A stretch of DNA of 64,000 nucleotides from Candidatus Eiseniibacteriota bacterium. GTDB taxonomy: Bacteria > Eisenbacteria > RBG-16-71-46 > JACRLI01. Below the pieces are notes generated by a model. That model did no database searches. It saw nothing but the letters and a program-made list of their open reading frames with translations, and was not told where the DNA came from. Below, piece by piece: positions 20,667 through 61,874 of this stretch. Location of the stretch: assembly GCA_016235265.1 (NCBI GenBank), contig JACRLI010000015.1, positions 133,335-197,334 of the forward strand, in the 5' to 3' direction. The translations under genes and the position numbers were made by a program. Position 1 is the first letter of the stretch; each line of letters begins with the position of its first letter.

Positions 20667-22053
<1,387 letters not shown>

Positions 22054-22079
<26 letters not shown>

Positions 22080-25621: not shown

Positions 25622-25623
25622 GT

Positions 25624-25944: not shown

Positions 25945-25975
25945 CTCCCGCTCCTTGGGGTTTCGGGGTTGCCGG

Positions 25976-26443
25976 TCACCCGGCCTTGCGCATTTCCATT
26001 GCGCCGGGGCGCGTCTTCCACATCCGGACCCGGTTTTCACCCGGGCCGCGGACCACCTCCACGTTGTCCATCAGCCGCAGCATCAACGCCACCCCGCGCC
26101 CCCCCTCCAGCATCTCGCGGTTGCGTTCGGTGACGGACTGCAGGCGGCCCACGTCGAAGCCGTTCCCGCGATCCACCACGTCGAACCACACGCCGTCCTC
26201 GACGTCGCTCACCACCAGCTCCACGGTGCGGTCGGCCCGCCGGCTGTTGCCGTGCGTGATGGCGTTGTGCATCGCCTCGTTGACCGCCAGGTCGATCCGG
26301 AAGGTGTCCCTCCGGCTCCACCCGCTGGCGCGGAGGAATGTCCGCAGACCGTGGCTCACCCACGGCAGCATGGCCGGGTCGCTGGGCAGTTCCACCCGGA
26401 ACCAGTGTTGCGCCGCTCCCAGGCGGCCGGCGTCGCGGTTCAC
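25976..26443 (-). CDS. Anti-sigma regulatory factor / serine protein kinase (RsbW/SpoIIAB-like HATPase_c)
   Basis: About 155 aa from GTG at 26443 (GTGA overlap with the phosphatase stop). N-box AVNEAMHNAITHG, G-box VVDRGNGFD, GRGVALM motif. Confidence 0.75.
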   Translation of the reverse strand: MNRDAGRLGAAQHWFRVELPSDPAMLPWVSHGLRTFLRASGWSRRDTFRIDLAVNEAMHNAITHGNSRRADRTVELVVSDVEDGVWFDVVDRGNGFDVGRLQSVTERNREMLEGGRGVALMLRLMDNVEVVRGPGENRVRMWKTRPGAMEMRKAG

Positions 26444-27726: not shown

Positions 27727-27748
27727 CGGCGCCCTCCCCCGCGGGCCG

Positions 27749-28612: not shown

Positions 28613-28721
28613 TCGGGGAACTCTCCGAGGCCGGGGGCCTGGTGAAGGAGACTCTGGCTTTCAGGCGCCCCGGGGGCGCCCCGCACCGGCTCGGCCGGGT
28701 GCTCCGGTTCCGCGCACGGTC

Positions 28722-32937: not shown

Positions 32938-35829
32938 TCAGGCGGCTGCCCGCCCGGCCAGCGAGGGATCCGCGGCCAGGGCGCGCTCGTACGCCCCGGC
33001 GGCTTCGTCCTCGCGCCCCGCGGCCAGCAGCGCCAGGGCGTACTGCGACAGCAGCTGCGCGTCCGAAGCGTGCTGGGGCGTGAGCCTCTCGAACACCTTG
33101 AGACTCTCCGCCACGCGCCCCGCTTCCCGCAGCGCCACCGCACGCAGGAACTCGGTGTGCGGGTCGCCGCTGTCCTCGCGGAAGAGCTCCTCGAGCAATT
33201 CCAGCGCCTCGCCGGGCAGGTGGGCCCGGATCCGGGCGGCCGCCACGCGCGTGCGCAGTTCCCGCGGCGCCCCGACCACGCCCAGCGCGGCCAGCTCCAG
33301 GTCCCGCCCCTCGCGTTCCATCTGCTCGGCGATCCGCAGCGTGCACTGCCACGCGTTGTGCCGCGCGGGCTGAAGACCCGGGTCCAGCGACAGGGCGCGG
33401 TCGAAGGACTGCAGGGCCTCGCCGTAGCGTCCCGACTGGTACAGGGCGTTGCCCAGGTTGTAGCGGGCCAGCGCGGACTCCGGCTGCAGTTCCGCCGCGC
33501 GCATGTATTCGCGCACGGCCTCCCCGAAGCGGCCCAGGTAGTAGAGGCAGTTTCCGTGGTCCAGGCGCAGCGGGCCCTCGTCCAGGCTCTCCTCGCATGC
33601 CAGGCCCTGTCCCGAGGCCAGCAGCCTCCCCAGCAACTCCGCCGCGACCTGGTAGTCGCGCCCCATGAACTCGATGCCCGCGCGCAGGTAGGTCACCAGC
33701 GCGCTGTTCGGGCGGGCGGCCTCGGCCTCGTCCAGGTGGGAGCGGGCGGTCTCCCGGTTGCCCTCCGCGAGCGCGATCTGCGCCAGCTTGACGTGCGCCA
33801 GCGACAGGGCCTCGGGCGGCAGCGAGCGCCCGTGCAGCGAGGCCTCCAGCGGGATCACCGCGTCGGCGTTGCGTCCCAGCGCGAAGAGGGTCACGCCCAG
33901 ATGGAACAACAGGAACCGGTCCCCCGGACGTTCCGCGATCTCCCGGTGCAGCAGTCTCAGGTTGCGCTCCTGCTTGACGCGCAGCGTCTGCGCGTCCAGG
34001 CCGTAACCCGCGTGCAGGATGCGGATGTTGCTCCGCGCCAGCCGCGCCCCCCCCCGCACCAGCGAGGGAAGCACCTGCTCGTGCACCCGGCCCTCGAAGG
34101 CCACGCCCGGGAGCTTGCGGAACACGCGGCAGTAATGGTGGGACACCCCGCTCACCGCCTCGCCGTCGCGCATGCGGTTGGCGATCACCACCTCGGCCGC
34201 GTCCCAGCGCCCGCCGCGGAGCAGGGCCCGGAGTTCGTCCACGGAATCGGGGTCCAGCTCCTCGTCCGCATCCAGCACCAGCACCCACGGGCCCCGGGCG
34301 TGGGACAGCGCCAGGTTGCGCGGCGCGGAGAAGTCATCGTCCCAGGTGGTCGTGATCACCGCGGCGCCCATCGCGCGGGCCAGGTCGGGCGTGCCGTCCA
34401 CCGAGCCGGTGTCCACGACCACGATCTCATCAGCCACGCCGCGCACGCTGGCCAGCGCGCGCTCCAGCGAAGGCCGCGCGTCCCGCACGATCATGCACAC
34501 GCTCAGGTCCGCCCCGGTGACGCGGCTGCCGGAGACCAGCTCATCCTCGTCCATGGTCTCCTGCAACCGCAGCAGCTCGGCGTTTCCCGGCACGTGGGCC
34601 GCGCCCGACGCCAGCGCGGCGCGCGCCTCGTGGGGCCGGCCCAGCCCCATCAGCACGCGGGCCAGGGCCAGGTGCCCTTCGGGCAGGTGCGGTGTGAGCC
34701 GGGTGGCCTTCTCCAGGTGGGCCCGGGCGCTCTCCAGCTCCCCGGCCACCTCATCCAGCGACGCCAACTCCAGCAGCGCCTCCGCGGAGTTGGGCTGCAG
34801 GCGCAGCGCCGCCTCCAGGTGGGCGCGGGCGCGCGCCGGGTAGCCGCGGATCCGCTCGCACAGGGCCAGCTGCACGCGCACGTGCACCGGCTCGGCGTGG
34901 AAGTCCATCACCGCGTCGCTGGGCGGGGGCGGGGATTCCAGCAGCGAGGTCAGGATTTCCGCCGCGCGGGTGGGGTCGCCCGAGCGGCGGGCGGCCTCCG
35001 CCCGCAGCAACATCCCGCACTGCGTCCGGTCGTCCTCGCCGATCGCCTCCAGGGCCTCGGCGTTTCGCCCCGTCTCCAGGGCGCAGATGCACAGGTTCCA
35101 GTGCGCCTGCTGCAGGAACTCCGCTGGCAGCGGCGCCTCGAGCAGCCTGCGGAACAGGCCCCGGGCGCGCTCGTACTCGCCCATTGCCATCAGCGCGTTG
35201 GCGAGGTTGCGTTGCACCATGGGATCGTCGGAGCGCAGCCGCGCCTCCTCCTCCACGATGGCCAGGTTCCGCGCGCGGCGGGCCGGCTCGCGCTGCGGGT
35301 CGGCGTAACCGAGGTGGCGGATCACCACCGGGACGCGCTGGGCCGCCGCCGCCAGGGGCCCGTCCGGCCCGATCACCTGCTCGTGGAGCGCTCCCTCGAA
35401 GCGCACTCCCGGGAGGCGGCGGAAGACGCGGGGATAGTAGTGGGACAGCCACACTCCGGAATGGCGGTGCCGGGCCTCGCTCTCGATCCGCAGGCACATC
35501 GCCGGGAGGTACTCATCGGCATTTTCCAGGAACCGGCGCAGCCGCGCGCCGTTGAAGAAGTCGATGCGCTCGTCGGCGTCCAGGTACAGCACCCAGTCCC
35601 CGGTCGCCTGCGCCAGCGACGCGTTCCGTGCGGCGGCGAAATCGCCGGTCCACGCGAACCCGGACACCCGCGCGCCGGCGTCCCTCGCGATCTGCGCGGT
35701 GCGGTCGGTGGAGCCGGTGTCCACGACGATCATCTCGTCCACGAACTCGGAGGCCATCGCGAGGCACTCGCGCATGTGGACCTCCTCGTTCTTGACGATC
35801 ATGCACAGCGAAAGCCGGACCTCGGGCAC
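32938..35829 (-). CDS. Tandem-duplicated GT2 glycosyltransferase-TPR protein (two GT2 plus TPR modules), 963 aa
   Basis: Two copies of the family-2 glycosyltransferase DxD core (LSLCMIVKNEE...VVDTGSTDRT...LYLDADE and LSVCMIVRDARP...VVDTGSVDGT...LVLDADE), each followed by TPR repeats. Confidence 0.8.
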   Translation of the reverse strand: MPEVRLSLCMIVKNEEVHMRECLAMASEFVDEMIVVDTGSTDRTAQIARDAGARVSGFAWTGDFAAARNASLAQATGDWVLYLDADERIDFFNGARLRRFLENADEYLPAMCLRIESEARHRHSGVWLSHYYPRVFRRLPGVRFEGALHEQVIGPDGPLAAAAQRVPVVIRHLGYADPQREPARRARNLAIVEEEARLRSDDPMVQRNLANALMAMGEYERARGLFRRLLEAPLPAEFLQQAHWNLCICALETGRNAEALEAIGEDDRTQCGMLLRAEAARRSGDPTRAAEILTSLLESPPPPSDAVMDFHAEPVHVRVQLALCERIRGYPARARAHLEAALRLQPNSAEALLELASLDEVAGELESARAHLEKATRLTPHLPEGHLALARVLMGLGRPHEARAALASGAAHVPGNAELLRLQETMDEDELVSGSRVTGADLSVCMIVRDARPSLERALASVRGVADEIVVVDTGSVDGTPDLARAMGAAVITTTWDDDFSAPRNLALSHARGPWVLVLDADEELDPDSVDELRALLRGGRWDAAEVVIANRMRDGEAVSGVSHHYCRVFRKLPGVAFEGRVHEQVLPSLVRGGARLARSNIRILHAGYGLDAQTLRVKQERNLRLLHREIAERPGDRFLLFHLGVTLFALGRNADAVIPLEASLHGRSLPPEALSLAHVKLAQIALAEGNRETARSHLDEAEAARPNSALVTYLRAGIEFMGRDYQVAAELLGRLLASGQGLACEESLDEGPLRLDHGNCLYYLGRFGEAVREYMRAAELQPESALARYNLGNALYQSGRYGEALQSFDRALSLDPGLQPARHNAWQCTLRIAEQMEREGRDLELAALGVVGAPRELRTRVAAARIRAHLPGEALELLEELFREDSGDPHTEFLRAVALREAGRVAESLKVFERLTPQHASDAQLLSQYALALLAAGREDEAAGAYERALAADPSLAGRAAA

Positions 35830-35859
35830 GGTGTTCCTCCTCGATGCGCGCGGCGGCCG

Positions 35860-36657
35860 CTACGCCGCCCGCTGCGCCGTCTCCAGCCGCCGGAGCAGGC
35901 TGGGCAGCAGCGCCAGCTCCGGGTTGCGCCATTTCTGCTGGAACAGGGCGCGGTTGCGTTCGATCAACGCCATGTAGTCCACGCCCTCGGCGCGGAATGT
36001 GGCGCTGCCCTCGTGGTGCACGAAGCAGCTTTCCACCACCAGGCACTTCAGGCCCAGCAGGCGGGTCCTCAGGCAGTAGTCGTCGTCCTCGAAGTTGCCG
36101 ATCCCGAAGCGCTCGTCCCATTCGCCCACGGCGTCGGCCGTCTCCCGGGTGAAGGCGAGGCAGAAACCCACCAATCGCTCCACCTCGCGCACCGCGCCGA
36201 AGCGCGTGGCGGCCAGGGTGCGGGCCACGCCGTCGGGCCCGCCGCTGCGCGCGTAGTCCACCGGGACGCACTGCGCACCGGAGCAGTTGTTGGTGAGCGG
36301 GCCCGCCAGCCCCGCGCCGGGCAACGCCAGCGCCTCGTGCAGCTCCTCCAGCCAGCCCGGAGTGACCTGCACGTCGCTGTTGAGCAGCACCAGCGTCCCG
36401 CCGCGGGAAGCGTCCACCAGCTGGTTGACGGCAGCCGCGAAGCCGCGGTTCCCGGGATTCACGATCAGGCGCACGTCGCGGCCGGCGAGGTCCTCGCGCA
36501 CGTCCGCGCGGGAGCCGTTGTCCACGATCACGATCTCGTGGGGCTGCCGGGTGTGGCGGCCGATGCTCTCGAGAGCCAGCCGCAGCAGCGGCAGCTGGTT
36601 CCATACCGGCACCAGGATGGACGTGAGCCGGGGTTCGATTCCGCGTTCAACCGGCAA
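35860..36657 (-). CDS. GT2-family glycosyltransferase (probable TTG start overlapping upstream stop)
   Basis: About 265 aa; TSILVPVWNQ...IVIVDNGS...LNSDV...FGIGNFEDDDYCLR family-2 GT motifs. Confidence 0.7.
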   Translation of the reverse strand: MPVERGIEPRLTSILVPVWNQLPLLRLALESIGRHTRQPHEIVIVDNGSRADVREDLAGRDVRLIVNPGNRGFAAAVNQLVDASRGGTLVLLNSDVQVTPGWLEELHEALALPGAGLAGPLTNNCSGAQCVPVDYARSGGPDGVARTLAATRFGAVREVERLVGFCLAFTRETADAVGEWDERFGIGNFEDDDYCLRTRLLGLKCLVVESCFVHHEGSATFRAEGVDYMALIERNRALFQQKWRNPELALLPSLLRRLETAQRAA

Positions 36658-39529
36658 GGGGCAGTTCCTCCTCCCCGGCGGCGCCCAGCAGGCGCAGCCG
36701 GTCGTGGATGTCCTCGTTTCGCGGGGCCAGCTTGCGGGCCAGGTGGAAGCACTGCACCGCCATGTCCGTGCGCCCGATGGAGAGCAGGCAGTCCCCGGTG
36801 TCCAGCAGCGCCTCAGGATCCTGTGGATCCAGTTCGAGCAGCCGGGAGAACGCCCCGGCGGCCTCCTCCCCGCGCCCCAGGTGGCGGAGCACGTGGGCCA
36901 GGTGGCCCAGCGCCCGTCGCGAGCGCGGGGCGCGTCGCACGGCCTCCGCGAATTCCCGGGCCCCGGCTTCGAAGTCTCCGCAAGCGCAGCGCGCAATCCC
37001 CAGCAGCAGCGCCAGTTCCGCCGGCCCGTCGCCCGTGGCGTGGGCGGCCTCGAGGCGTGCCACCGCCTCGCGCACGAGCCCCGCGTCGAGCTCTTCCGAT
37101 GCGGCGCGCAGCAGCGCGCGCACCGCGGGGTCGCCCGCCTCGGGCAGGTCCGGCACGGCGCGCACCGGCGGGTGCCCCAGCAGGAAGTACTCCGCCGCGG
37201 TCACGCCCCACTTGAGGGCGAACGCCCGCGCCGCCGAAGGCGCGCCTTCCTCCGGGTCCCCGCCGTCCACGTGCACGTAGGTGTCGCGGGCCACCGTGAG
37301 CCCCAGGCCCGACTCCCGGGCCCGCAGGCAGAAGTCGTCCACGGCCGCCTGCCCGTCCAGCGCCTCGTCCAGCTCGCCGATGCGCTCCACCACCTCGCAC
37401 CGGAGCGCCAGGCATTCGGGACGGAGCCCGGGAGTGTCCGCGTAGTCCATCCGCCGCAGCGCGCGCAGCTGCGCCGCGGCCTCCGCCGGCCCGGCCGAGC
37501 AGAGCGCCTCGCCGACCGCCTGGGCGCCGGAGGGCACCGGCAGCAGCGGGCCGGCCATGCCGGCCGCGTCCCGGTCGGCCAGCGCCCCCAGGAGCCCCTC
37601 GAGCCACCCGGCGGTCACCCGGGCCCGGTCGTCGAGCAGCACCACGAAGCGTCCCTTGGCCGCGCGCACGGAGGCGTTGGCGGCGCGGGACAGGCCCGGG
37701 GCGGACCCGGTCCCGACCGCGCGCGCACCCAGCCGCGCCAGCTCCGCGGGGAATGCCCCGCAGCCCGGGTCCCAGGCCACCAGGATTTCGTGGGACAGCG
37801 TCGTGTGGCGGCGCACCGCCTCCGCGCACTCCGCGGCCTGGCGCACGCCATGCCCGGGCAGGAGCACCACGGAGGTGAGGCCGACGGGCAGCACCTCCGT
37901 GCGCGGCCCCCCGCCCCGGCGGCGCCAGCAGGTCAGGAACCCGTCCTCGAGATGCACCGGATGAACGTCGGGCCGCACCCGCCCCGCCCACCGGGCGTTG
38001 AGCACCTTGGCGTTGTGCGACATGCGCGAGAAGCGCTCCGGGCCGCCCATGGACTCGTGGTGCGTGAGGACGCTGCGGGGTCGGTACACCACGCGGAAGC
38101 CGTGGGCCCGGGCGCGGAAGCACAGGTCCACGTCCTCGAAGCCGTTCCAGTAGGCGGGATCGAAACCGCCCAGCGCGTCGAACAATTCCCCGCGAACCAG
38201 GCAGCACGCCGCGGTGACCACCTGGAAGTCCCGCGGACGGTCCACGTGCGGGGCCCCGGCCGGGTCGTGCTGGTAGATGTGGAACCCGGTCACCCCCTGC
38301 GGGAAGTCGGGGTTGCCGGCCACCGTCACGCCGGCGTGCTGGATGGTCCCGTCGGGGAACAGCAGCTTGCTGCCCGCGATCCCCACCGTGGGGTCCTGGT
38401 CCAGCGCCTCCACCAGCGGCCCGAGCCAGCCCGGGTGCGCCTCGGTGTCGTTGTTGAGCAGCAGCACGTGGCAACCGGCGGCCGCGCGCGCGCCCTGGTT
38501 GCAGGCCCTCGCGAACCCGACATTCACCGGGTTGCGGATCAGCCGGATGCGCGGCAGGAACTCCGCCAGCGCCTCGCGCGGGTCCTCCACCGAGGCGTTG
38601 TCCACGACCACCACCTCGAAGCTGGCCCCCGCGGGGACGGAGAAGAGCGAGGCGAGACACTGCCGCGTCCATTCGGACTTCCCGTAGGCGGGGATCACCA
38701 CGGTGGCGTCGGGACGCTTCGTGGCCGGGTCGCACCGCCACGCGGAGGGCCGCAGGTCCGGGAAGCCGCGCAGGCCGGCGGCCGCGCCCGCGCCGCACGC
38801 GGTGCACTCCAGCGGACGGCATTCGCGGCCGGTGGCGCAAACCGCGGCGGCGGCGCAGGCCGGGCACAGCAGGGCCGGCGCCAGCGCCTCCGCCACGGCG
38901 GCCGGGCCGGAGCCCGGGAGCCCGGAGAGGCTGTCGAGCACGGGCACCCGGGGCTCCAGGCGCGTGAGGACCACCAGCGTGCGCCCCGAATCCGGGGAGG
39001 CCGTGGACCGAGCCAGGCGCGCCCACGCGCCGCGCTGCGAGCGCAGCGCGCGGCTCACCTCGGGGCGCACCTCGGGCAACCGGTCGGCCTGGGCGGCGGC
39101 GCACTCCACCGCCGCGCTGCCCCAGGGGAGCCTGCGGGTCTCGAAGCGCCCGTCGGAGCGGGCGTGCCACTCGATTCTCCCGGCCAGGCCCGCGGGGGCG
39201 GCCACCACCACCAGCTCCGCGGCCACCCGCATCGCGGCGGTGAGGATCGCCTCCAGTTCCCCTTCCGCCAGGTCGGCGCCGGCGTCGGTCCACGCCACGG
39301 CCCGCACCGCGCCCTCGCGCAGCGCCGGCCGGGCGGGATCGCCCAGCAGCGTGATCTCCGCCCGCCCCGGACGCGCCCCGTACACCGGCCCCAGGCCCAG
39401 GTGCGGCGCGTCCCACGCCCCATTCCACCCGTCCCGGCCGTGCCGCAGTTCCAGCACCGAGGAGCAGTCCAGGCCGGCGTCCTCCAGGAATCCGGTCAGC
39501 GGCGCCCAGCGCACCACGTCACCCAGCAT
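36647..39529 (-). CDS. Multi-domain glycosyltransferase (Cys-rich zinc-ribbon-like motif, two GT2-like domains, TPR C-terminus), 960 aa
   Basis: CPACAAAAVCATGRECRPLECTACG Cys cluster; GT2 core (TVVIPAYGKSEW...VVVVDNAS...LLLNNDTEAHPGWL...DVDLCFRA); second Rossmann-like GT-A region; TPR repeats. Confidence 0.75.
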   Translation of the reverse strand: MLGDVVRWAPLTGFLEDAGLDCSSVLELRHGRDGWNGAWDAPHLGLGPVYGARPGRAEITLLGDPARPALREGAVRAVAWTDAGADLAEGELEAILTAAMRVAAELVVVAAPAGLAGRIEWHARSDGRFETRRLPWGSAAVECAAAQADRLPEVRPEVSRALRSQRGAWARLARSTASPDSGRTLVVLTRLEPRVPVLDSLSGLPGSGPAAVAEALAPALLCPACAAAAVCATGRECRPLECTACGAGAAAGLRGFPDLRPSAWRCDPATKRPDATVVIPAYGKSEWTRQCLASLFSVPAGASFEVVVVDNASVEDPREALAEFLPRIRLIRNPVNVGFARACNQGARAAAGCHVLLLNNDTEAHPGWLGPLVEALDQDPTVGIAGSKLLFPDGTIQHAGVTVAGNPDFPQGVTGFHIYQHDPAGAPHVDRPRDFQVVTAACCLVRGELFDALGGFDPAYWNGFEDVDLCFRARAHGFRVVYRPRSVLTHHESMGGPERFSRMSHNAKVLNARWAGRVRPDVHPVHLEDGFLTCWRRRGGGPRTEVLPVGLTSVVLLPGHGVRQAAECAEAVRRHTTLSHEILVAWDPGCGAFPAELARLGARAVGTGSAPGLSRAANASVRAAKGRFVVLLDDRARVTAGWLEGLLGALADRDAAGMAGPLLPVPSGAQAVGEALCSAGPAEAAAQLRALRRMDYADTPGLRPECLALRCEVVERIGELDEALDGQAAVDDFCLRARESGLGLTVARDTYVHVDGGDPEEGAPSAARAFALKWGVTAAEYFLLGHPPVRAVPDLPEAGDPAVRALLRAASEELDAGLVREAVARLEAAHATGDGPAELALLLGIARCACGDFEAGAREFAEAVRRAPRSRRALGHLAHVLRHLGRGEEAAGAFSRLLELDPQDPEALLDTGDCLLSIGRTDMAVQCFHLARKLAPRNEDIHDRLRLLGAAGEEELPLAG

Positions 39530-40538
39530 CTCGGCCTCCGTCCGGTCGCCTTTCGTGGCCGGCCGCCTCGCGGCGGGCCAGCTCGTCCAGCGCGTACACC
39601 GTGCGCTCCGCCTCTTCCAGCGTCACCGCGGCCTCGCACGGGAAGCTCAGCGCGCGCCGCAGGTACTCCACCGCGCCGGGAAAGCTCCGCCGCACGTGAG
39701 GATCGTCGGGGTCCAGCCCCAGGGCCAGCCGCAGCTGCGGCCGCGCCACGCGCACGCCGCGCGCGTGCAGCTGGCGCGCCCATGCCGCGTTGGGATAGGC
39801 CGTCGAGCCGAACAGCACCCGCACCGTGTAGCGCGGCCACGTGCCGCGGGTGCCGCGCGCGTACTCGGGCAGGCGGACGCCATCCAGCGGGCCCCAGGCG
39901 GATTCCCAGAGCGCGGCCAGGCGGCGCTGCCCCGCGACGCGCGCGGGAAGGGCCGCCAGGAATTCCTCCAGCGCCGGATCGGCCGGCGCCCCCACCTCAA
40001 CGGAGGGCGGGGGCAGCTTGCGACCCGCCTCCTCCACCGTGCCCGCGTCGGCCGAGGCGATGCGCGCCGCGCGGTCGGGACCGTGCAGCAGCACCGCGTC
40101 GGCGTGGGCCCCCGGAAGGAAGCCCTGGGCCATCGCCCCCAGCGACTCGCGCACCTCCTCGACCACCACCGCGTCACGGCGCCGGGCCAGGGCGGCCAGT
40201 TGCGGTCCGTCCGGCGGCAGGCCGTCCACGTCGGCGCACCACAGGGCCTCGAAGCCCCGGCCTTCGCGGGCCACCGAGGACACATCCAGGCGCCCGGTGT
40301 CGGGATCCACATCCAGCGGGACCACGTCACAACCGCCCCGCCTCAGAGCCTCGGCGGCCTGCGTGCAGCCCCACACCGGCAGCGCCACGCGCGCGCCGGG
40401 CCCCAGGCCCAGCGTGCGCGACAGCGCCTGCGCGGCGGTGCGGAACGGGACCGGTCGGGTCAGCGCGACCACCTCCAGGTGGTCCTCCAGTCCCTCGGGC
40501 AGCCCCGCGGGGCGGATCGGCTGGCGCAGCGCGCTCAC
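39519..40538 (-). CDS. DegT/DnrJ/EryC1-like (PLP-dependent sugar aminotransferase-like) protein, possibly degenerate
   Basis: 339 aa from GTG at 40538 (GTGA overlap); VALPVWGCTQAAEALRRGGCDVVPLDVDPDTGRLD resembles the DegT motif (PSFTF.A...G..PVFVDID..T.NID); assignment is tentative. Confidence 0.45.
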   Translation of the reverse strand: MSALRQPIRPAGLPEGLEDHLEVVALTRPVPFRTAAQALSRTLGLGPGARVALPVWGCTQAAEALRRGGCDVVPLDVDPDTGRLDVSSVAREGRGFEALWCADVDGLPPDGPQLAALARRRDAVVVEEVRESLGAMAQGFLPGAHADAVLLHGPDRAARIASADAGTVEEAGRKLPPPSVEVGAPADPALEEFLAALPARVAGQRRLAALWESAWGPLDGVRLPEYARGTRGTWPRYTVRVLFGSTAYPNAAWARQLHARGVRVARPQLRLALGLDPDDPHVRRSFPGAVEYLRRALSFPCEAAVTLEEAERTVYALDELARREAAGHERRPDGGRDAG

Positions 40539-41515
40539 GAGGCGGCTCTCCAGGCCGCGCCGCGGGCATCGCGGGTTCGGCCCGCGTCCGCGGCGGCCCA
40601 GGCGCGCATCTCGCGCAGCCCTTCCCGGAGCGTCACCGACGGGGCCCAGCGCAGCAGCCGCGCCGCGAGCGAGGGGTCCCCGCGCATGCGGCCGATCTCG
40701 GCCAGCGGCGCGGGGTGGGTGACGAAGGTGTAGCCGACCCCCGCCGACATGGAGCGCCCCAGCTCGGAGAGGCGCGTCTCCTCGCCGGAGGCGGCGTGCA
40801 CCACCGTGCCGTGCACGCGGAGATCCTCGCCCATCTCGGCCAGCAGCCGCGCCACGTCCCGGGCGTGCACGAAGTCGCGGCTCTGACGGCCGTCGCCGTG
40901 GATCTTCACCTTCTCGCCGCGGGCGACGCGGCGGGCGAACGTGGCGATCACGCTGTCGTCCTCCTCCCCTTCGGGAACGGGGCCGTACGCGCCGAACACC
41001 CGGCACACCGAAACCGGCAAACCGTGGGTGTGATCGCAGGACAGCGCCAGCTGCTCGGCCGCCAGGAGCGCCGCGGCGCGCGGTGTGCGCGCCGCGGTGG
41101 GCCAGGACTCCGACTGCTTCTCCCGGCCGCGGTAGGGCTCCAGCACCTCGGAGCTGCCCGCGAGCACCAGCCGCGCCCGGTGCGCCCGGCACGCCTCCAC
41201 CACCTCCAGCGCCTCGCCGACCACGCGGCGGAACGCCTCACGCGGCGACGCGTCCGCGGCGGAGGCACGCGGCACCTGCCAGAAACACACCGCCGGCCGC
41301 TCCGAGAACACCGGCAGCAGCTCCTCGGGGTTGCCCACGGCGCCCGCGCTGAAACCCAGGAATCCCTCCCGGCCCGCCAGCTCCGCGTACCCGCGGGCGG
41401 AGGCCTCCGACCTGCCCAGCACGCGCACCGAGTGTCCGCGCGCCAGCCACTCGGCGACCAGCGCGTGGCCCAGGGCGCCCGAGCCGCCGACCAACGCCGC
41501 GCTCAGGCCGCGCAC
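40535..41515 (-). CDS. NAD-dependent epimerase/dehydratase (SDR family)
   Basis: About 326 aa from GTG at 41515; glycine-rich NAD motif VGGSGALGHALVAEWLARGHSV; epimerase C-terminal region. Confidence 0.65.
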   Translation of the reverse strand: MRGLSAALVGGSGALGHALVAEWLARGHSVRVLGRSEASARGYAELAGREGFLGFSAGAVGNPEELLPVFSERPAVCFWQVPRASAADASPREAFRRVVGEALEVVEACRAHRARLVLAGSSEVLEPYRGREKQSESWPTAARTPRAAALLAAEQLALSCDHTHGLPVSVCRVFGAYGPVPEGEEDDSVIATFARRVARGEKVKIHGDGRQSRDFVHARDVARLLAEMGEDLRVHGTVVHAASGEETRLSELGRSMSAGVGYTFVTHPAPLAEIGRMRGDPSLAARLLRWAPSVTLREGLREMRAWAAADAGRTRDARGAAWRAAS

Positions 41516-44103
41516 GCCTCCGCCTTCCCGGGGCGCGGCGCAGGCCGGGCCCGCAGCGCCTCCTCCAGGCCCTCCACCAGGTCCATCCGGCTTTGGGCGC
41601 GCGCGCGGCGCAGCGCCTCGGCGGTCGCGTCCCGCGCCCCGGCGTAATCGCCCATGCGCGCCAGGAGGTCGGCGCGCCGCAGGGCCGGCGCGAGCTCGCC
41701 GGGCATCAGCTCGCACAGGCGCGCATAGCCGCTGGCCGCCACCGGCAGGTTCCCGTGGGTCTCCGCGAGGCGCGTGGCCTCGGATACCGCCCAGGTGTTG
41801 GCGGGCTCCAGGTTGATCGCCTGCTGGTACTGTCCGACGGCGTCCTGCACCCGCCCGGCGGCCTCCAGCACGCGCCCGCAGGCCACCAGCAGCACGGCGG
41901 GTCGCGGGGTTTCAAGCAACTCCCGCCGCATCAGCTCGCCCGCGGCGCCGAAGTCGCGCATGGCGGCCAGGGAGAGCGCCAGGCCGGACACGGCCCCGGG
42001 CAGGTGCGGATGGGCGCCCAGCACGCGGGCGAAGATTTCCGACGCGGCCTCGGGGGAGTTGGACTCGAGCAGTTCGTGCCCGCGGCTCATGGCGTCGGCC
42101 AGGTGCACCGGATCGCCCAGGTCGCGCTCCTCCCGGGGCCCGTCCGGTCCCAGGCCCAGAGCGGGTCCGAGGAGGCTGGCGATGCGCTCGTCGCCATGCG
42201 CCTCTCGCACCAGCTCGCGCCCCGCGCGCGAAAGCGCCTCCCACGCCTCCTTCGAGTCGTACAGCTCCGCGATGGCGCGGGCGAACCCCTCGGGGTCCGA
42301 TGCGATCCTCGCGTTCCGCCCATCCACCAGGTGCATGCCCTCGGCGCCCACCGGGGTGGTCACGCACGGCAGGCCGCAGCCCAGCGCCATGGCGATCTTG
42401 CCCTTGAGCCCCGCACCGTAGCGCAGCGGGGCGATCGAGACGCGGGCCCCGGAGAGGTACGGGGCCAGGTCGGGAACGTAACCGGTGACCTCGATGTCCC
42501 CTCCGTGGAGCCGCCGCACCGATTCCGGCGGGCGGTCACCCACGATGCGCCAGCGCACGCCGGGCAGCAGTTCGCGCACCCGGGGCCACACCTCGGCGTG
42601 GAACCACGCCACCGCGTCCACGTTGGGCAGGTGGCGGAAGCCCGCCAGGAACACCAGGTCGCGGCGCGCCTCGAAACCGGGCTCGTGCTCGTCCACGTGG
42701 TAGACGTCGGGCACCACGCGCACGTCGCGATCCGGCAGGTGGCGCAGCAGCTCGAGTCGGTCGTCCTCGGTGACGGTCAGCACGGTGTTGGCGCAGCGGT
42801 AGGCCGCCAGTTCCCGGGCCTGCATCTGACGGAACGGCCTCCAGGTCTCCGGGAGGTCCTCCTGGCGCGCGCGGCGGGCGTGCCGCAGGAAATCGAGGTC
42901 CACCGAGTCGATCACGATGCGCGTCCGCGGACTCTCCTGGATCAGCCGGGGAATGAGGCGCAGGGCCGACTCGTAGAACGGCAGCAGCGCGACGTCGTAG
43001 TCGCGACCCGCGAGCAGCGCGCCCATCGCCGCGGAGGGGTCCACCCGCGGCGGGCTGCCCTGCAGCGGGCGGTCCAGCGGGTACACCATCACTCCCGTGG
43101 CGCGCAGCCGCTCCACGTAGGGAGCCAGATCGATGCCTTCGTGCTCCCCGCTGTGCAGGCAGGCCACGGTCACGTGGTGGCCGCGCTCCGCGAGGAGCCG
43201 CACCATGTTGTGGATGCGCTGGAAGCCGGAGGCGCGGTCGAAGAGCGGCGGGATCTCGTGGAACATCAGCACCTGGCGGCCCGAGATGCGGTGCGCCGCG
43301 CGCGCGGTCTCACGCGGGTCGCGGGTCACGACCGGCTGGAGGCGCAGTTCCGCGGTCCACTTCTCGAGGAACTTGGGCCGGTTGACGGCCTGGAACTTCT
43401 TGAATCCGGACTCGGTGTCGCGGCCCGCGGTCACGCCCTCGTGATGCACCACCCGTGCGGCGGGCTGGTAGACCACCCGCAGGCCCTCGCGGCGCGCGGC
43501 GAAACACAGGTCGGTGTCTTCGTAGTAGGCGGGCGCGAAGCGGCGGTCGAAGCCACCCAGCTTCCGGAACAGGCTGGCGCGCGCCAGCAGGCAGGCGCCG
43601 GAGCCGTAGTCCACCTCGCGGACGTAGGCGTACTCGGGAGCCTCGGGATCGCCGCCGCGGCCGTAGTTGCATCCGGTGGCGTCGGAGAAGAGGATGCCGC
43701 CCGCCTCCTGCAGCGTGCCGTCGGTGTTGAGCAGGCGCGCACACACGACTCCCGCGGTGGCGTCGCGCTCGGCGGTATCCACCAGCGCCTCGAGCCAGCC
43801 GGGCGCGGGGAGGGTGTCGTTGTTGAGGAACACCAGGTACTCGCCGCCCGCGACCTCGGCAGCGCGGTTGTTGCCGTCCACGAAGCCGAGGTTCTCCGGG
43901 CTGGAGATCACCTGCATGGCGCCCTCGGGGAGGCTGCCCCGGAACGCCGCCAGCCAATCCCCGGTGCCGTCGGTGGACGCGTTGTCCACCACCACCAGTT
44001 CGTAGAGGCCGGCGGGCGTGACGTCGCGCACCCGCTCCAGGCAGGCGCGGGTGTGCGCGAGGTGGTTGAAACAGACGACCAGGATGCTGGCTTTCGGCGG
44101 CAT
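41503..44103 (-). CDS. Multi-domain glycosyltransferase (GT2 plus GT4-like plus TPR), 866 aa
   Basis: ATG at 44103 with GAGGAG RBS; N-terminal GT2 (ILVVCFN...VVVDNAS...FLNNDT...YYEDTDLCF); central GT-B/GT4-like region (GAGLKGKIAMALGCGLPCVTTPVGAEG); C-terminal TPR. Confidence 0.8.
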   Translation of the reverse strand: MPPKASILVVCFNHLAHTRACLERVRDVTPAGLYELVVVDNASTDGTGDWLAAFRGSLPEGAMQVISSPENLGFVDGNNRAAEVAGGEYLVFLNNDTLPAPGWLEALVDTAERDATAGVVCARLLNTDGTLQEAGGILFSDATGCNYGRGGDPEAPEYAYVREVDYGSGACLLARASLFRKLGGFDRRFAPAYYEDTDLCFAARREGLRVVYQPAARVVHHEGVTAGRDTESGFKKFQAVNRPKFLEKWTAELRLQPVVTRDPRETARAAHRISGRQVLMFHEIPPLFDRASGFQRIHNMVRLLAERGHHVTVACLHSGEHEGIDLAPYVERLRATGVMVYPLDRPLQGSPPRVDPSAAMGALLAGRDYDVALLPFYESALRLIPRLIQESPRTRIVIDSVDLDFLRHARRARQEDLPETWRPFRQMQARELAAYRCANTVLTVTEDDRLELLRHLPDRDVRVVPDVYHVDEHEPGFEARRDLVFLAGFRHLPNVDAVAWFHAEVWPRVRELLPGVRWRIVGDRPPESVRRLHGGDIEVTGYVPDLAPYLSGARVSIAPLRYGAGLKGKIAMALGCGLPCVTTPVGAEGMHLVDGRNARIASDPEGFARAIAELYDSKEAWEALSRAGRELVREAHGDERIASLLGPALGLGPDGPREERDLGDPVHLADAMSRGHELLESNSPEAASEIFARVLGAHPHLPGAVSGLALSLAAMRDFGAAGELMRRELLETPRPAVLLVACGRVLEAAGRVQDAVGQYQQAINLEPANTWAVSEATRLAETHGNLPVAASGYARLCELMPGELAPALRRADLLARMGDYAGARDATAEALRRARAQSRMDLVEGLEEALRARPAPRPGKAEACAA

Positions 44104-44161
44104 GGCTCCTCGCGCGGAAATGGAAGACGGATGGCCGGGCGGGCCGGACATCCTGCGGAGA

Positions 44162-44176
44162 GCAACCGATGTGCCA
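44162..44176 (-). promoter_or_regulatory. Sigma54 -24/-12 promoter for the glycosyltransferase island
   Basis: Minus strand reads TGGCAC-ATCGG-TTGCT (exact consensus), about 58 nt upstream of the 44103 ATG. Confidence 0.75.
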
Positions 44177-44313
44177 TGCGGGAAGGCAATCGAAGCGAGG
44201 GGCTATCTTACGGAATGCCTTGAGGAAGCGCCGGGGCCGGGAAATGGCCACCGGGCGGAACGGAAAAGGGCGCCGGCGGATAAGCCACCGGGCGCCCAGA
44301 ATCTGGCCGAGGA

Positions 44314-53261: not shown

Positions 53262-53311
53262 GACGTTCACCTCCGCGGCGGCCGGATAGACCTGTCCGGC
53301 AGCCGGAATCG

Positions 53312-53326
53312 CAACGGACGTGCCAC
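53312..53326 (-). promoter_or_regulatory. Sigma54 -24/-12 promoter for flgF-flgG-flgA-flgH-flgI-flgJ
   Basis: Minus strand reads TGGCAC-GTCCG-TTGC (exact consensus), about 50 nt upstream of the flgF start. Confidence 0.72.
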
Positions 53327-57712: not shown

Positions 57713-58501
57713 TCAGCCGGCGCGCAACCCGGTGAGAAACGCCCCCGCCGCGCGGGCGGCGCCCTCCGGTCCGGCGGCGTCCATGCGCTTGAGCAGCGCC
57801 GAGCCCACGATCACCGCGTCCGCCAGGCCGGTGAACCGGCCCACGTGCGCGGCACTCTCGATGCCGAAGCCCACGGCGACCGGCAGCGGCGTCATGGCGC
57901 GCAATCCGCGCAGCAGCTCCTCCAGGCCCGCGGCGGCCTCGCCCTTGCCGGTGACCCCGGTGCGGCTCACCACGTACACGTAGCCGCCCGCGCCTTCCAG
58001 GATCCGCCGCAGCCGCCCGGGGCGGGTGAGCGGAGTGACCAGGCGCACCGCGCCCACGCCGGCGTCGCGCAGCGCGTCCCACACCTCCGGCAGCTCGTCG
58101 GGAGGCACGTCGGTGAGGATGACCCCGTCCACCCCCGACTCCGCGGCACGGCGCGCGAACGCCCCGGCGCCGAAACGCAGCAGCGGGTTGGCGTAGGTCA
58201 TCATCACGATCGGCAGGGCGCAGCGGGCGTGGATCTCGGCAGCCATGGCCAGCGAGCGCTCCACGGTCATGCCGTGGCCCAGCGCCACCTGCGAGGAGGC
58301 CTGGATCACCGGCCCGTCGGCGATGGGATCGGAAAACGGGATGCCCAGCTCGAGCGCGGCGGCCCCGGCCGCGGCCAGTGCCACGGCGGCGTCCACGGTT
58401 CGCGCGGGGTCGGGGTGGCCTGCGGTCAGGAACGGCACCAAAGCGGGACGGCCCCCCGGGGAGCAGACCCGGAGAGCCGTCTCGAGACGCGCCGCGGGCA
58501 T
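57713..58501 (-). CDS. trpA: Tryptophan synthase alpha subunit TrpA
   Basis: 262 aa from ATG at 58501 (ATGA overlap). TrpA motifs (LVPFLTAGHPD, ELGIPFSDPIADGPVIQ, VGFGI). Confidence 0.9.
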   Translation of the reverse strand: MPAARLETALRVCSPGGRPALVPFLTAGHPDPARTVDAAVALAAAGAAALELGIPFSDPIADGPVIQASSQVALGHGMTVERSLAMAAEIHARCALPIVMMTYANPLLRFGAGAFARRAAESGVDGVILTDVPPDELPEVWDALRDAGVGAVRLVTPLTRPGRLRRILEGAGGYVYVVSRTGVTGKGEAAAGLEELLRGLRAMTPLPVAVGFGIESAAHVGRFTGLADAVIVGSALLKRMDAAGPEGAARAAGAFLTGLRAG

Positions 58502-59010
58502 CAGCGCGGGAACATCGAGACCGGGTCGGTCTCGTACCCCAGCGGCGTGTAGCGCGGGTTCCAGGTGCCCGGCATGCGCTGGTACTGGATGGTGATCAGC
58601 GAGTGCTCGCCGGCCTTGTAGCTCAAGTTGACGTCGTGCAGGAACAGCCCCGGCTTGGCGGAGTAGCCGAAGTACGAGCCGCTGGACATGAACAGGTTGC
58701 CCACCCCCACCGACATGGTGAGCGGGCCCGAGGCGCGGTAGTTGAGGCGGGTGACGTTCAGTCCCTGGGAGAGCGTGCCGCCGCCGCCCGACATCACCGA
58801 AAAGGTGGTCTCGTTGGTGATCTTGAAGCGGCTGGGGTCCAGCGCCCCCAGGAGCGAGCGCGAGCCCGAACCCGAATAGCCCGCCGGCGAGCCCTGCTCC
58901 GACGAACGGCCGAACATGTCCAGCCCGCTGCGCGAAAGGTAGGTGTCCTCCGCGCGCGCGGTGGTGGCGCAGGCGGCGAGAACCACGAGAATTGCCAGGC
59001 AGCGCTTCAT
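58501..59010 (-). CDS. Secreted hypothetical protein (signal peptide; possible small beta-barrel)
   Basis: 169 aa from ATG at 59010 (GGGAGGAAC RBS); signal peptide MKRCLAILVVLAACATTARA; Gly/Ser/Tyr-rich beta-type composition. Confidence 0.5.
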   Translation of the reverse strand: MKRCLAILVVLAACATTARAEDTYLSRSGLDMFGRSSEQGSPAGYSGSGSRSLLGALDPSRFKITNETTFSVMSGGGGTLSQGLNVTRLNYRASGPLTMSVGVGNLFMSSGSYFGYSAKPGLFLHDVNLSYKAGEHSLITIQYQRMPGTWNPRYTPLGYETDPVSMFPR

Positions 59011-59347: not shown

Positions 59348-60955
59348 CTACTCGTCGACGGCCTGGACCTCGATGACGAGGTTGATCCGCACCTTCTGCC
59401 CCGGCTTCAGCCCCGAGAGGCTCACCGGGATGGTAAAGGTGCGGTCCACCGGTGCGGGCCCGGCTTCGCCGTGGGCCGCCGCGACCGGGGCTCCAACCTC
59501 GTGGTGCAACTCGACGACTTCGGCCTGCAGCTTCGGGTACGGCGCCTGCGAGCCGGCGCCCGGGCGACCGCCGATGCTCTCCGGCAAGTCGCGGCTGCCG
59601 AACCCCTCGCGGAAGTCGGGCAGGTCCAGCGGACGGTCGTCGGAGGGCGGGGGCAGCTCGTCCGCCTGCACGGCGGCCGCCTCCTCCAACGATGCGGACA
59701 CCGCGGGCGGCTCGAACACTGTGGCCGGCTCCGGCCGGGTCACCACCGCCGGCGGCGCGCACGTCTCCACCGCGGTGGCCGCGAAGCCGGCGGATTCCGC
59801 CTGCTGCCGCGCGGCAAACTCAGACACTCCCACCGCCTCGACGGACTCCTGGACCGGGGGCGCGACGCCATTGCCCTTGCCGGTCTTGAGCCACGTGGCG
59901 AACCGCTCCGCGAGCGACGGAGCCCGCCGGGAAGCAGCCGCGGAGTACATGGACGCCTCCGCCGGGGAAGCGCCGTACGTGGAGGCGTCCGCTGAAGCGG
60001 CCGCGGCCATCGCCGCGCCTGCGCCCGCGGCCGAAGCCATCGCCGGCTCCGGTTCGGGCACCGCCGGCTGCGGGGGCGGCGCCGGTGCCAGTGGCTGGCT
60101 CTCCCGCACCCCTGGCGCGGCGGCCGCCGGGGCGGGATCGAAGACCGCCGGAGCGGGAGCCTGGATCTCGGGCCGGCTCGTCTCGCGGACGGCCGGCGCC
60201 GGCGCGTGGGACGCGGAAGCGGCCTCGAAGGCCACCGGCTCGGGCTCCGGCAGGGATCGCGCCGGCGCCGGCGCGGACGCCGCCGGCGGGGCGGAAGGAG
60301 AAGCGGGCGCGGAAGCCATGGGACGCGCTTCGCCGGCGGACATCGCCGACGAACTGCGCGCGCCGAGCTTCAGCTCCCGGTTCAGGTTCTCGAGCAGCAG
60401 CCGCGACACGCCGCGGAAAGTCTCGAACACTCCGTCACCCTTGACCGCCACCGCCTCGAACCACGGCACGCCCTTGGGGTTGAGCTCGCGGTTGAGCTCT
60501 TCGACGGTGTAGACATCCGGCAGGTCGCGCTTGTTGTACTGGATCACCCAGGGCACCTGGTCCAGGGACAGGTTGTACTCGGCCAGGTTGTCCACCAGGT
60601 TCTGCAGGCTGTCCAGGTTCTCCTGCATCCGGCCGCGCTCCGAGTCGGCCACGAACACGATGGCGTCGGCCCCCCGCAGCACCAGCTTGCGGGTGGCGTT
60701 GTAGAACACCTGCCCCGGCACGGTGTAGAGCATGAACCGGGTCTTGAAGCCGGAGATCTCGCCCAGGTCAATGGGCAGCAGGTCGAAGAACAGCGTGCGG
60801 TCGTTCTGGGTCTTCATCGAGACCATCTTGCCGCGGCTGGTGGACGGGATGGCGCCGTAGATGAACTCGAGGTTGGTGGTCTTGCCGGAGAGCCCGGTGC
60901 CGTAATAGACCAGCTTGGCGTTGATTTCGCGGCCCGAATAACTTACGACAACCAC
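59348..60955 (-). CDS. MglA-like Ras-family small GTPase fused to a roughly 340-aa Ala/Pro-rich low-complexity region and a C-terminal beta-rich domain
   Basis: GTG at 60955 with AGGAGG RBS. First about 195 aa align with Myxococcus MglA (REINAKLVYYGTGLSGKTTNL...DRTLFFDLLP...TVPGQVFY...VIQYNKRDL). The rest is a long A/P/S-rich segment ending in TFTIPVSLSGLKPGQKVRINLVIEVQAVDE. Confidence 0.75.
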   Translation of the reverse strand: MVVVSYSGREINAKLVYYGTGLSGKTTNLEFIYGAIPSTSRGKMVSMKTQNDRTLFFDLLPIDLGEISGFKTRFMLYTVPGQVFYNATRKLVLRGADAIVFVADSERGRMQENLDSLQNLVDNLAEYNLSLDQVPWVIQYNKRDLPDVYTVEELNRELNPKGVPWFEAVAVKGDGVFETFRGVSRLLLENLNRELKLGARSSSAMSAGEARPMASAPASPSAPPAASAPAPARSLPEPEPVAFEAASASHAPAPAVRETSRPEIQAPAPAVFDPAPAAAAPGVRESQPLAPAPPPQPAVPEPEPAMASAAGAGAAMAAAASADASTYGASPAEASMYSAAASRRAPSLAERFATWLKTGKGNGVAPPVQESVEAVGVSEFAARQQAESAGFAATAVETCAPPAVVTRPEPATVFEPPAVSASLEEAAAVQADELPPPSDDRPLDLPDFREGFGSRDLPESIGGRPGAGSQAPYPKLQAEVVELHHEVGAPVAAAHGEAGPAPVDRTFTIPVSLSGLKPGQKVRINLVIEVQAVDE

Positions 60956-61079
60956 AAAGCCTCCTTGCGAGATGCGGCCCGCCCGGCGGTGCGTGAGGCC
61001 GGTGCTCGCCTGCGATGCGAATCGGCAGCCTTCAGCGGGATTGGGCGCATTGGGCGCGGATTCCCTGCCCTGAAGATTC

Positions 61080-61094
61080 GCACCATTCGTGCCA
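61080..61094 (-). promoter_or_regulatory. Sigma54-like promoter upstream of the MglA-like gene (imperfect -12)
   Basis: Minus strand reads TGGCACG-AATG-GTGC; GG and GC correctly spaced but G replaces T at -14; about 110 nt upstream of the GTG. Confidence 0.4.
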
Positions 61095-61207
61095 GCCTCC
61101 CGGTCGTTGGGAGCGCGGACTTTGCAGGCGGCTTTCGCGGGTTTCGTCGAGCCGGGACGCGCAAACTGCACGGGGAACCGGGCAGACTCGCGATCGCCCC
61201 GCGACCG

Positions 61208-61654
61208 TCAGCTGGCCATGGCCGCGACGGCGCTCCGGCGAATCCAGATTCCTTCCTTCTCCTTGAGCTGCGGGCCCCCCTCCAGGCGGGCGTCGGGCGC
61301 GGTGTAGTGCGAGAGGAAGATCCGCTTGAGCTCCGGGTAGTGCTCGGTCGGGAAGTAGCGACACACGCGCGTGACCATGCCGTCGGTGTCCGAATAGACG
61401 TAGAGCGTGACCTCGGTCACCCGGTCGAACGTGTTCTGGCTGTACGCGACCTCGGGGGACTCCTCGAGGTCGAGCCACAGCGAGGCGCCACAGTTGCGGA
61501 CCTCGAAGCCGTGCTTGTGGACCATCAGGTATTCCCACAAGCCGAAGATTTCCATCGGGATGTAGCGGGAGCTCGGTGCGGACCGGCCGCTGCTGACTTC
61601 GCAGCGAACGAGCTTCTGGCTGGGCATGGGTCTTCCTCCTTGAAAGACCGACAT
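61208..61654 (-). CDS. Hypothetical protein (148 aa)
   Basis: ORF with coding-like composition (MPSQKLVRCEVSSG...EIFGLWEYLMVHKHGFEVRN...); no family recognised. Confidence 0.4.
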   Translation of the reverse strand: MSVFQGGRPMPSQKLVRCEVSSGRSAPSSRYIPMEIFGLWEYLMVHKHGFEVRNCGASLWLDLEESPEVAYSQNTFDRVTEVTLYVYSDTDGMVTRVCRYFPTEHYPELKRIFLSHYTAPDARLEGGPQLKEKEGIWIRRSAVAAMAS

Positions 61655-61874
61655 TGGGCGGGCGCCCGGTTACGGTGTCGCACTATAGCCAGAGCCGGCG
61701 ATAAGTGTCAACGAGGGGTATGGCCCGCCGGCGGCTCCCGGCCGGCCCCCCCCGACCGGGCGGAGCGGGAGACGGGGCGCGGCCGCGGCTGCGCGAACGC
61801 CCCCGCTGGGCTATGATGGCCGGGTTCTGTGCCGTCCGATGAGCAGCGCCCAACCCACGGGAGAGGAAGCAGCG

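Follow-up and report, generated by a model that had tools for sequence, protein, structure and literature searches.

To our knowledge, all that is understood of MglA, the small Ras-like GTPase of bacterial motility, has been learned from a protein of about 195 amino acids (aa) that works with the Roadblock GTPase-activating protein (GAP) MglB on pili, gliding or predation. Flagellar position and number are set by the nucleotide-dependent switches FlhF, a signal recognition particle (SRP)-type GTPase, and FlhG, a MinD/ParA-type ATPase. Here we describe mglA-ext, a gene near the end of a 64,000-nucleotide stretch of Candidatus Eisenbacteria DNA (contig JACRLI010000015.1, positions 133,335 to 197,334; this whole stretch is referred to below as the window). 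In this bacterial group an almost unchanged MglA catalytic core has been joined to a disordered tether with a conserved end and the neighbouring mglB has been dropped, which raises the question of how MglA-ext is localised, and how it is switched off, without MglB.

Described MglA proteins usually travel with their regulator. Of 449 cases of MglA, 390 had MglB encoded no more than four genes away, leaving 59 orphans, and members of the Group 1 class also occur in Acidobacteria, Gemmatimonadetes and Fibrobacteres (PMC4316618). SofG of Myxococcus xanthus is an orphan MglA paralogue that has no coupled MglB; it binds the bactofilin BacP and places the pilus ATPases at the pole (PMC4316618, PMC4085708), and since it acts through the BacP landmark, orphan MglA paralogues can evidently work through a landmark.

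The tailed MglA of Candidatus Eisenbacteria

The gene and its catalytic domain lie at the following positions.

59348..60955, minus strand: mglA-ext coding sequence, 535 aa, GTG start, stop included, defined by open reading frame (ORF) translation, GC content at third codon positions (GC3), and the start and architecture common to its orthologues
60960..60964, minus strand: Shine-Dalgarno sequence GGAGG, read from the sequence four bases 5' of the mglA-ext GTG
60371..60955, minus strand: MglA G domain (residues 1-195), with P-loop GTGLSGKT, arginine finger R53, T78-x-x-G81-Q82 and N141-K-R-D144

The start of mglA-ext is the GTG at 60955, and not the mechanical start of the ORF list (61171); translation from it gives MVVVSYSG, the N-terminus common to all mglA-ext orthologues, and AAGGAGG stands in the position of the Shine-Dalgarno sequence at the three orthologous loci that were inspected (L001-L003). 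The first-pass annotation of this DNA had carried the locus to 61094, which is the end of the sigma54-like element discussed below and not the end of the gene. GC3 is the best coding signal in a window of 72.5% G+C, and in the mglA-ext frame it stays at 0.80-1.00 from the first to the last 30-codon block. Being continuous along the ORF, it indicates that the extension is translated in the same frame as the GTPase, and mglA-ext is confirmed as one uninterrupted, real gene.

Residues 3-192 of the G domain align without gaps to residues 3-192 of M. xanthus MglA (5ymx, 6h17, 6hjh; E 4e-72; 57% identity), and the alignment to Thermus thermophilus MglA (3t12) is likewise gapless (E 1e-71); eukaryotic Arf and Rab proteins are far weaker matches (E 1e-5 or worse), and Pfam returns only a weak Arf match. 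Residues kept in common with M. xanthus MglA include K25, T26, R53, T54, D58, T78, G81, Q82 and N141-K142-x-D144, so that both GTPase motifs are in place, the P-loop GTGLSGKT at residues 19-26 and NKxD as N141-K-R-D144. Among 121 family members, G19, G21, K25, T26, N141 and R143 are some of the invariant positions. The protein also carries T78-V-P-G81-Q82, with T78 invariant in the family; PMC3000849 presents as a hallmark of MglA this Thr78, which replaces the conserved DxxG Asp. R53 and Q82 are likewise present and invariant in the family, and correspond to the intrinsic arginine finger and the catalytic glutamine of Group 1 MglA proteins (PMC4316618). Switch I reads GKMVSMKT, with family-specific invariant residues, as against GKLISLST in M. 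xanthus MglA. Judged by these residues, the core is a complete Group 1 MglA G domain that is predicted to be catalytically intact, although the whole protein departs from the typical Group 1 traits of a single domain of about 195 aa and of coupling to MglB (in the window and 88 related loci), a coupling that is typical but not obligatory. The proposal that the first ~195 residues are MglA-like is thus upheld by the E value, the 57% identity and the catalytic residues that are kept. An AlphaFold2 (AF2) model of full-length MglA-ext, built with a 121-sequence alignment, has low confidence in the N-terminal half of the G domain and is usable in the C-terminal half.

Far from being an oddity of one genome, the fused protein is the usual form of MglA beside a conserved 139-aa protein, p139, across Candidatus Eisenbacteria. 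A scan with the p139 alignment, using one genome per species, found relatives in 135 species-level genomes, of which the best 80 were listed. Most of these 80 are labelled Candidatus Eisenbacteria, and where the contig among them was long enough, p139 was followed by mglA on the same strand in about 70 of 72 loci. The 65 complete orthologues that adjoin p139, each from a species-level genome, have a median length of 378 aa, and total length in the family runs from about 300 to 580 aa. A protein search returned more than 7,500 MglA-like proteins, the best 120 clusters of which were all 296-569 aa long, with none of canonical length. An exact look-up gave no record of the window's own MglA-ext sequence. 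No C-terminal extension of this kind is reported for MglA in the main survey of prokaryotic small GTPases (PMC4316618). We conclude that the tailed MglA is a real variant, widespread in one uncultured phylum and uncharacterised.

The tail comprises a long linker, two islands and a terminal motif.

59447..60370, minus strand: disordered Ala/Pro/Ser-rich linker (residues 196-503), recognised by composition and low AF2 scores, of highly variable length among orthologues
59873..59929, minus strand: conserved island RRAPSLAERFATWLKTGKG (residues 343-361), a predicted amphipathic helix and candidate membrane-targeting sequence
59600..59641, minus strand: acidic/hydrophobic island DDRPLDLPDFREGF (residues 439-452), which its closest relatives (P0001, P0002, P0004 and P0005) have conserved
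59351..59446, minus strand: conserved C-terminal motif DRTFTIPVSLSGLKPGQKVRINLVIEVQAVDE (residues 504-535), in which a turn separates two short amphipathic segments of beta type

Over its 340 residues the tail contains 24% Ala, 15% Pro and 9% Ser, and the means of 10-residue AF2 blocks in the linker stay at 37-64 up to residue 500, the exception being a helix at residues 348-358. The long disordered extension in the GTPase frame, already seen at first pass, is therefore supported by continuous GC3, by the low AF2 scores and by the orthologues. The helix at 348-358 is the only one that AF2 places in the tail; it lies within the RRAPSLAERFATWLKTGKG island, which has the highest helical hydrophobic moment of the tail, and the equivalent peak in other long-tailed members reads FWGRLFRRGRK, FLGRLFGRGKK or GFFGRIARFF. 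FlhG/MinD-type proteins bind the membrane by a C-terminal amphipathic helix, which in Escherichia coli MinD is KKGFLKRLFGG, and on comparison with this sequence the basic amphipathic helix of the MglA-ext tail appears to resemble the membrane-targeting helix of MinD. A second island, (D/E)YG-x-E-x-x-LP, occurs in 105 of 186 family members, and DDRPLDLPDFREGF, with its acidic LDLPDF, may be its counterpart in the window.

The most constant part of this layout is the terminus. The TFTIPVSLSGLKPGQKVRINLVIEVQAVDE sequence with which the first-pass annotation ended the protein is present in MglA-ext and conserved, and the motif is built from a VVVPV-x-L-type hydrophobic segment with a central Pro, a turn of 3-12 residues and an EIVLRIVL-type segment, the window's version being TFTIPVSLSGLKPGQKVRINLVIEV. 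Of 186 family sequences, 175 have the core h-x-[VIL]-P-[VILM] among their last 75 residues, and in these the motif is kept in frame though linker length varies several-fold. The hydrophobic moments of the two segments are 0.56 and 0.73 at 170 degrees (beta), as against 0.13 and 0.07 at 100 degrees (helical), and the AF2 block means rise to 76, 89 and 86 over residues 501-530. We call the motif a hairpin; the label describes a sequence pattern alone, because DSSP gives no strands there. Neither Pfam (E<=1) nor NCBIfam found a match in the tail. The "unknown C-terminal domain" of the first-pass annotation accordingly shrinks to a two-strand motif of only ~25-30 aa, and its suggestion of a PilZ-like module gives way as well, with no Pfam match at E<=1, a conserved part of ~25-30 aa, and neither the RxxxR nor the D/NxSxxG motif. 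PilZ (PF07238) is a beta-barrel of ~100 aa, for which this motif is too short.

No mglB nearby, and the neighbouring protein p139

No Roadblock/LC7 domain was detected by Pfam among the 51 window proteins scanned, and tblastn with M. xanthus MglB, a query that matches PDB chain 6h5b_B at every aligned position shown, had no match below E=1 across 1.12 Mb, made up of the window and 88 related loci. In 85 related loci MglB was thus not found over flanks of about 10 kb. These two negatives agree with the original remark that no mglB is nearby. Having no MglB within four genes, mglA-ext is therefore an orphan MglA by the criterion of Wuichet and Sogaard-Andersen (PMC4316618). The gene context as first drawn overlooked the conserved neighbour directly upstream.

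61208..61627, minus strand: p139, a conserved protein of 139 aa, directly upstream of mglA-ext on the same strand; candidate GTPase partner

The sequence of p139 is 100% identical to that of a protein from a Candidatus Eisenbacteria metagenome-assembled genome (MAG). It has no Pfam or NCBIfam family and no sequence match in the PDB. AF2 gives it a well-scored model (pLDDT 86, pTM 0.79) with the order beta-beta-alpha-beta-alpha-beta-beta-alpha-beta, for which the best Foldseek E was 0.07. Neither by family nor by fold could p139 be placed as an MglB-type Roadblock/LC7 protein (PF03259), and that candidate was rejected. The family is also small: a HMMER profile search with p139 against 1.84 billion representatives found only 200 clusters, and the best 150 of these are mostly 50-220 aa long (maximum 326 aa) with no obvious domain fusions. 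Given its position and conservation, p139 is the best candidate for a partner in MglB's place.

Two loci show p139 relatives in other settings. At L007 (3778-4913), p139 is followed directly by trpA, without mglA-ext, which looks like a natural loss. At L088 (670-4987), a distant p139 homologue (E 1e-25) comes directly after three genes with prepilin N-methylation motifs and a gene for a protein with Ig-like repeats; this locus is the sole hint of a link between the p139 family and type IV pilus-like systems, and the contig ends right after the p139 homologue.

Promoters and flagellar neighbourhood

Upstream of mglA-ext, and elsewhere in the window, the following features bear on its regulation.

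61080-61094, minus strand: sigma54-type element TGGCACGAATGGTGC, 139 nucleotides (nt) 5' of the mglA-ext start (listed as CTGGCACGAATGGTGC, 61080..61095)
14757-14771, minus strand: exact TGGCAC-N5-TTGC site 5' of flgB
20506-20520, minus strand: exact TGGCAC-N5-TTGC site 5' of the cheY-like/cheR unit
44162-44176, minus strand: exact TGGCAC-N5-TTGC site 5' of a glycosyltransferase gene
53311-53325, minus strand: exact TGGCAC-N5-TTGC site 5' of flgF
61682..61711, minus strand: near-consensus sigma70-type promoter TTGACA-18-TATAGT before p139 (11/12 match, 0.1 expected in shuffles)

The element TGGCACGAATGGTGC has GG at -24 and GC at -12 with the 10-nt spacing of the sigma54 consensus (TGGCACG-N4-TTGCW), and departs from TGGCAC-N5-TTGC by one mismatch (G for T before GC). 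Across the window, the stricter pattern TGGCAY-N5-YTGC occurs five times where 0.85 matches are expected, four of them before operons. In related genomes, TGGCA[CT]G-N4-[GC]TGC[TA] stands 90-240 nt upstream of the mglA-ext start in about 28 of 72 orthologous loci (for example, TGGCACGTATCGTGCT and TGGCATGACATCTGCA), and the sequence around it is not conserved; the clades that carry it, the window's included, have protein starts of the form MVVVSYSGREIN (SYSGREIN type). The case for TGGCACGAATGGTGC is strengthened by the enrichment of the stricter pattern in the window and by the retention of the element in ~28 of 72 loci, and the sigma54-type element proposed at first pass can be kept as a putative promoter.

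The window also encodes a sigma54 activator that has a receiver domain (~20667-22523), and others lie near mglA-ext in related loci; no rpoN was found in the window. From the exact sites and the encoded activator, the window's flagellar genes appear to be sigma54-dependent. The sigma70-type site before p139 suggests that p139 and mglA-ext are probably under separate promoters of different classes. Neither a terminator-like site nor an Rfam family was found at the mglA-ext locus. In a sister lineage that lacks p139 (L085/L086), a PAS histidine kinase and a sigma54 activator are encoded divergently from mglA-ext, and no -24/-12 site was found upstream of mglA-ext. There, a gene for a small Cys-rich protein of 56-64 aa (L085 9611-9781 and L086 9441-9635, both minus strand) forms an operon with the kinase and the activator.

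The window holds a flagellar and chemotaxis supercluster at ~36-53640. It comprises fliN, fliM, fliL, motB, motA, flbD, flgE, flgD, fliJ, fliI, fliH, fliG, fliF, flgC and flgB; cheY-like and cheR genes, kinases, the sigma54 activator, flaG, fliD, fliS and the flagellin gene; and four giant glycosyltransferase-TPR proteins, fliW, flgK, flgN, a flgJ-like gene, flgA, flgG and flgF. The first-pass annotation placed mglA-ext at the edge of this supercluster. Proximity to flagellar genes holds, in related genomes too, but mglA-ext lies 5.7 kb beyond flgF, across four unrelated genes that encode a GAF-PP2C phosphatase, an endonuclease/exonuclease/phosphatase-family protein, TrpA and sec160.

58501..59010, minus strand: sec160, a secreted protein of ~165 aa with a signal-peptide-like N-terminus, whose gene follows mglA-ext in many Eisenbacteria loci

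The usual order in the phylum is p139, mglA-ext, sec160, trpA, a convergent GAF-PP2C phosphatase gene and csrA (sometimes then fliS), followed by a histidine kinase, a sigma54 activator and a response regulator and, further on, by flhG and fliA; the window and L001 instead have flgF, flgG and flgA after the phosphatase gene. About 40 related loci with sufficient flank have csrA, fliS, the kinase/sigma54-activator pair, flhG and fliA, or flgF/G/A 2-8 kb downstream. Genes farther upstream of the p139-mglA-ext pair vary between loci. The sec160 gene, whose product has no family match, is also found 3' of mglA-ext in the lineage without p139 (L086 11896-12411), and could be the module's third member or merely a conserved neighbour.

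Three further observations concern the surroundings. The trpA gene (57713-58504, minus strand) has no adjoining trpB and, in almost every related locus, lies between sec160 and the phosphatase gene. Between the flagellin gene and fliW, 32938-44202 (minus strand) encodes four very large proteins (~450-990 aa) that combine glycosyltransferase family 2/4 domains with TPR; with an exact sigma54 site in front of one of its genes, this cluster is probably a flagellin glycosylation island. Inside the flagellar cluster, 23603-28660 (minus strand) encodes a HEAT-repeat protein (790 aa), a STAS protein, a GAF-SpoIIE/PP2C phosphatase and an HDOD protein, a set that looks like a partner-switching regulatory module for motility.

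Possible roles and comparison with known systems

We give roughly even credence to the reading that MglA-ext is a tethered MglA switch acting on a motility machine, with p139 as the most plausible replacement for MglB. Under this reading the tail would keep the G domain in place at a landmark or the membrane, either docking there or self-associating through the hairpin, and the GTP/GDP cycle of the G domain would recruit or release parts of the motility machine. MglB's regulatory role would have been taken over by another protein, for which p139 is the best candidate. The most likely client would be the flagellar/chemotaxis apparatus, ahead of pili, on the grounds of neighbourhood and promoter type only. 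The FlhF/FlhG-like role in flagellar placement that was suggested at first pass, which rests on the same two grounds, is plausible but speculative.

Several observations weigh against this reading. Distant p139 homologues occur in other lineages without an adjoining MglA, and no p139 lies near the mglA-ext of the L085/L086 sister lineage, whose product has a MinD-like helix and a hairpin loop of greater length. The search pattern for the MinD-like helix island matched only 14 of 186 family members, and DSSP assigned no strands to the C-terminal motif on the AF2 model. At one mismatch the sigma54 pattern is not enriched in the window (6 found, 4.8 expected), for which reason TGGCACGAATGGTGC taken alone is weak evidence, and the element is absent from the larger SYSGKEIN-type clades, which form the majority. 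Within the conserved block, trpA and the PP2C phosphatase gene are kept just as well as mglA-ext; gene order is therefore weak evidence of shared function and may reflect inheritance. Finally, a full-text literature search found no paper on a tailed MglA or on Eisenbacteria motility.

An ordinary MglA job, in which the protein governs the polarity of type IV pili or of gliding, as MglA does in Myxococcus, Thermus and Bdellovibrio, and its closeness to flagellar genes is merely inherited order, is a possibility that we take seriously, though we lean against it. The G domain is as near to M. xanthus MglA as are other cross-phylum MglAs and keeps the effector-facing residues, trpA and other unrelated genes share the conservation of the block, one distant p139 homologue follows three pilin-like (N_methyl) genes, and the characterised members of the MglA family described in the studies cited here act on pili, gliding or predation, not on flagella (PMC4316618, PMC3983030, PMC7668184). 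Set against this, no pilus or gliding gene lies in the 64-kb window or the inspected flanks, the promoter type in the window's clade is that of the flagellar operons, and the proximity of the kinase and sigma54 activator survives rearrangement in another lineage.

Two alternatives, both of which we regard as unlikely, concern the conserved parts of the tail. In the first, the GTPase would regulate itself, the DDRPLDLPDFREGF acidic island or the C-terminal motif folding onto the G-domain pocket formed by alpha5 and the beta2-beta3 loop and providing in cis a share of what otherwise comes in trans from MglB. In M. xanthus MglA, the pocket for the acidic C-terminal helix of MglB is lined by L64, I67, K181 and K185 (PMC6785124). 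MglA-ext keeps it as L64, I67, R181 and R185, with L64 invariant and R181 nearly invariant in the family, and MglB is absent nearby; but such conservation is equally expected if a partner binds in trans. Also in favour, AF2 regains scores of 76-89 at residues 501-530 after the disordered chain, and it is unusually unsure over the switch/interswitch half of the G domain. Against it, the motif has no paired strands by DSSP, and the acidic island is not universal.

In the second, which is similarly improbable in our estimate, MglA-ext would be a self-assembling hub, its aggregation-prone C-terminal motif oligomerising and, together with the Pro/Ala-rich linker, building a polar matrix or condensate with GTP-switchable heads, in the manner of PopZ or RomR. 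The succession of folded head, variable middle rich in Pro and Ala, and short conserved end is reminiscent of RomR, in which a non-conserved centre separates a conserved receiver domain from a C-terminal region that is also conserved (PMC6428892), and of PopZ, which combines helical regions with a proline-rich domain (PMC4085708); the C-terminal segments are, moreover, strongly beta-amphipathic. Self-association of MglA-ext is nevertheless conjectural, and the likeness to RomR and PopZ, in low-complexity sequence, is one of layout.

Quite unlikely, in its full form, is the boldest version of the tethered-switch reading, that MglA-ext and p139 are an unrecognised GTPase-regulator pair in which a new fold replaces MglB, the GTPase brings its own anchor (membrane helix and C-terminal hairpin), and the pair belongs to a sigma54 flagellar regulon and sets flagellar position, number or polarity. 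If it were true, MglA-ext/p139 would join FlhF/FlhG as a third type of flagellar placement system, and MglA-ext would be the first MglA-family protein linked to flagella. We attach practically no weight to an artefact (a frameshift, assembly error or wrong gene merger that fuses a normal 195-aa mglA with a gene downstream or with GC-rich non-coding DNA), since, common as long spurious ORFs are at this G+C and although several overlap the mglA-ext locus, GC3 in the frame remains high up to the stop codon, the same architecture recurs in 65 complete orthologues drawn from different assemblies, numerous indels have not put the C-terminal motif out of frame, and p139, the intergenic region and the mglA-ext start are identical in an assembly made independently (L004); codon-position GC and the orthologues together rule it out.

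Compared with known systems, then, MglA-ext differs from the canonical MglA of M. xanthus and T. thermophilus in its build: a single domain of ~195 aa there, a 535-aa protein with a 340-aa tail and no MglB nearby here. The functional slot of MglB is apparently vacant at mglA-ext, and the pocket into which the MglB helix fits is kept. The closest functional precedent is SofG, both being orphan GTPases of the MglA family, although by sequence MglA-ext appears far nearer to MglA itself; neither the window nor the inspected loci showed a bactofilin gene. With RomR (M. xanthus, Bdellovibrio) and PopZ (Caulobacter) it shares a layout, by analogy only, and where their N-terminal parts are a receiver domain or a helix, that of MglA-ext is a GTPase. 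As for FlhF and FlhG, flhG lies a few kb from mglA-ext in several related loci, but MglA-ext was rejected as a member of either family, its sole domain being Ras/Arf-like, and any resemblance would be functional. MglA-ext is thus a naturally occurring case of a small GTPase joined to a putative targeting region of its own, at a locus whose candidates for attention are p139, the tail islands and the sigma54 and flagellar link, and it adds to a catalogue of prokaryotic small GTPases that has so far centred on single-domain proteins.

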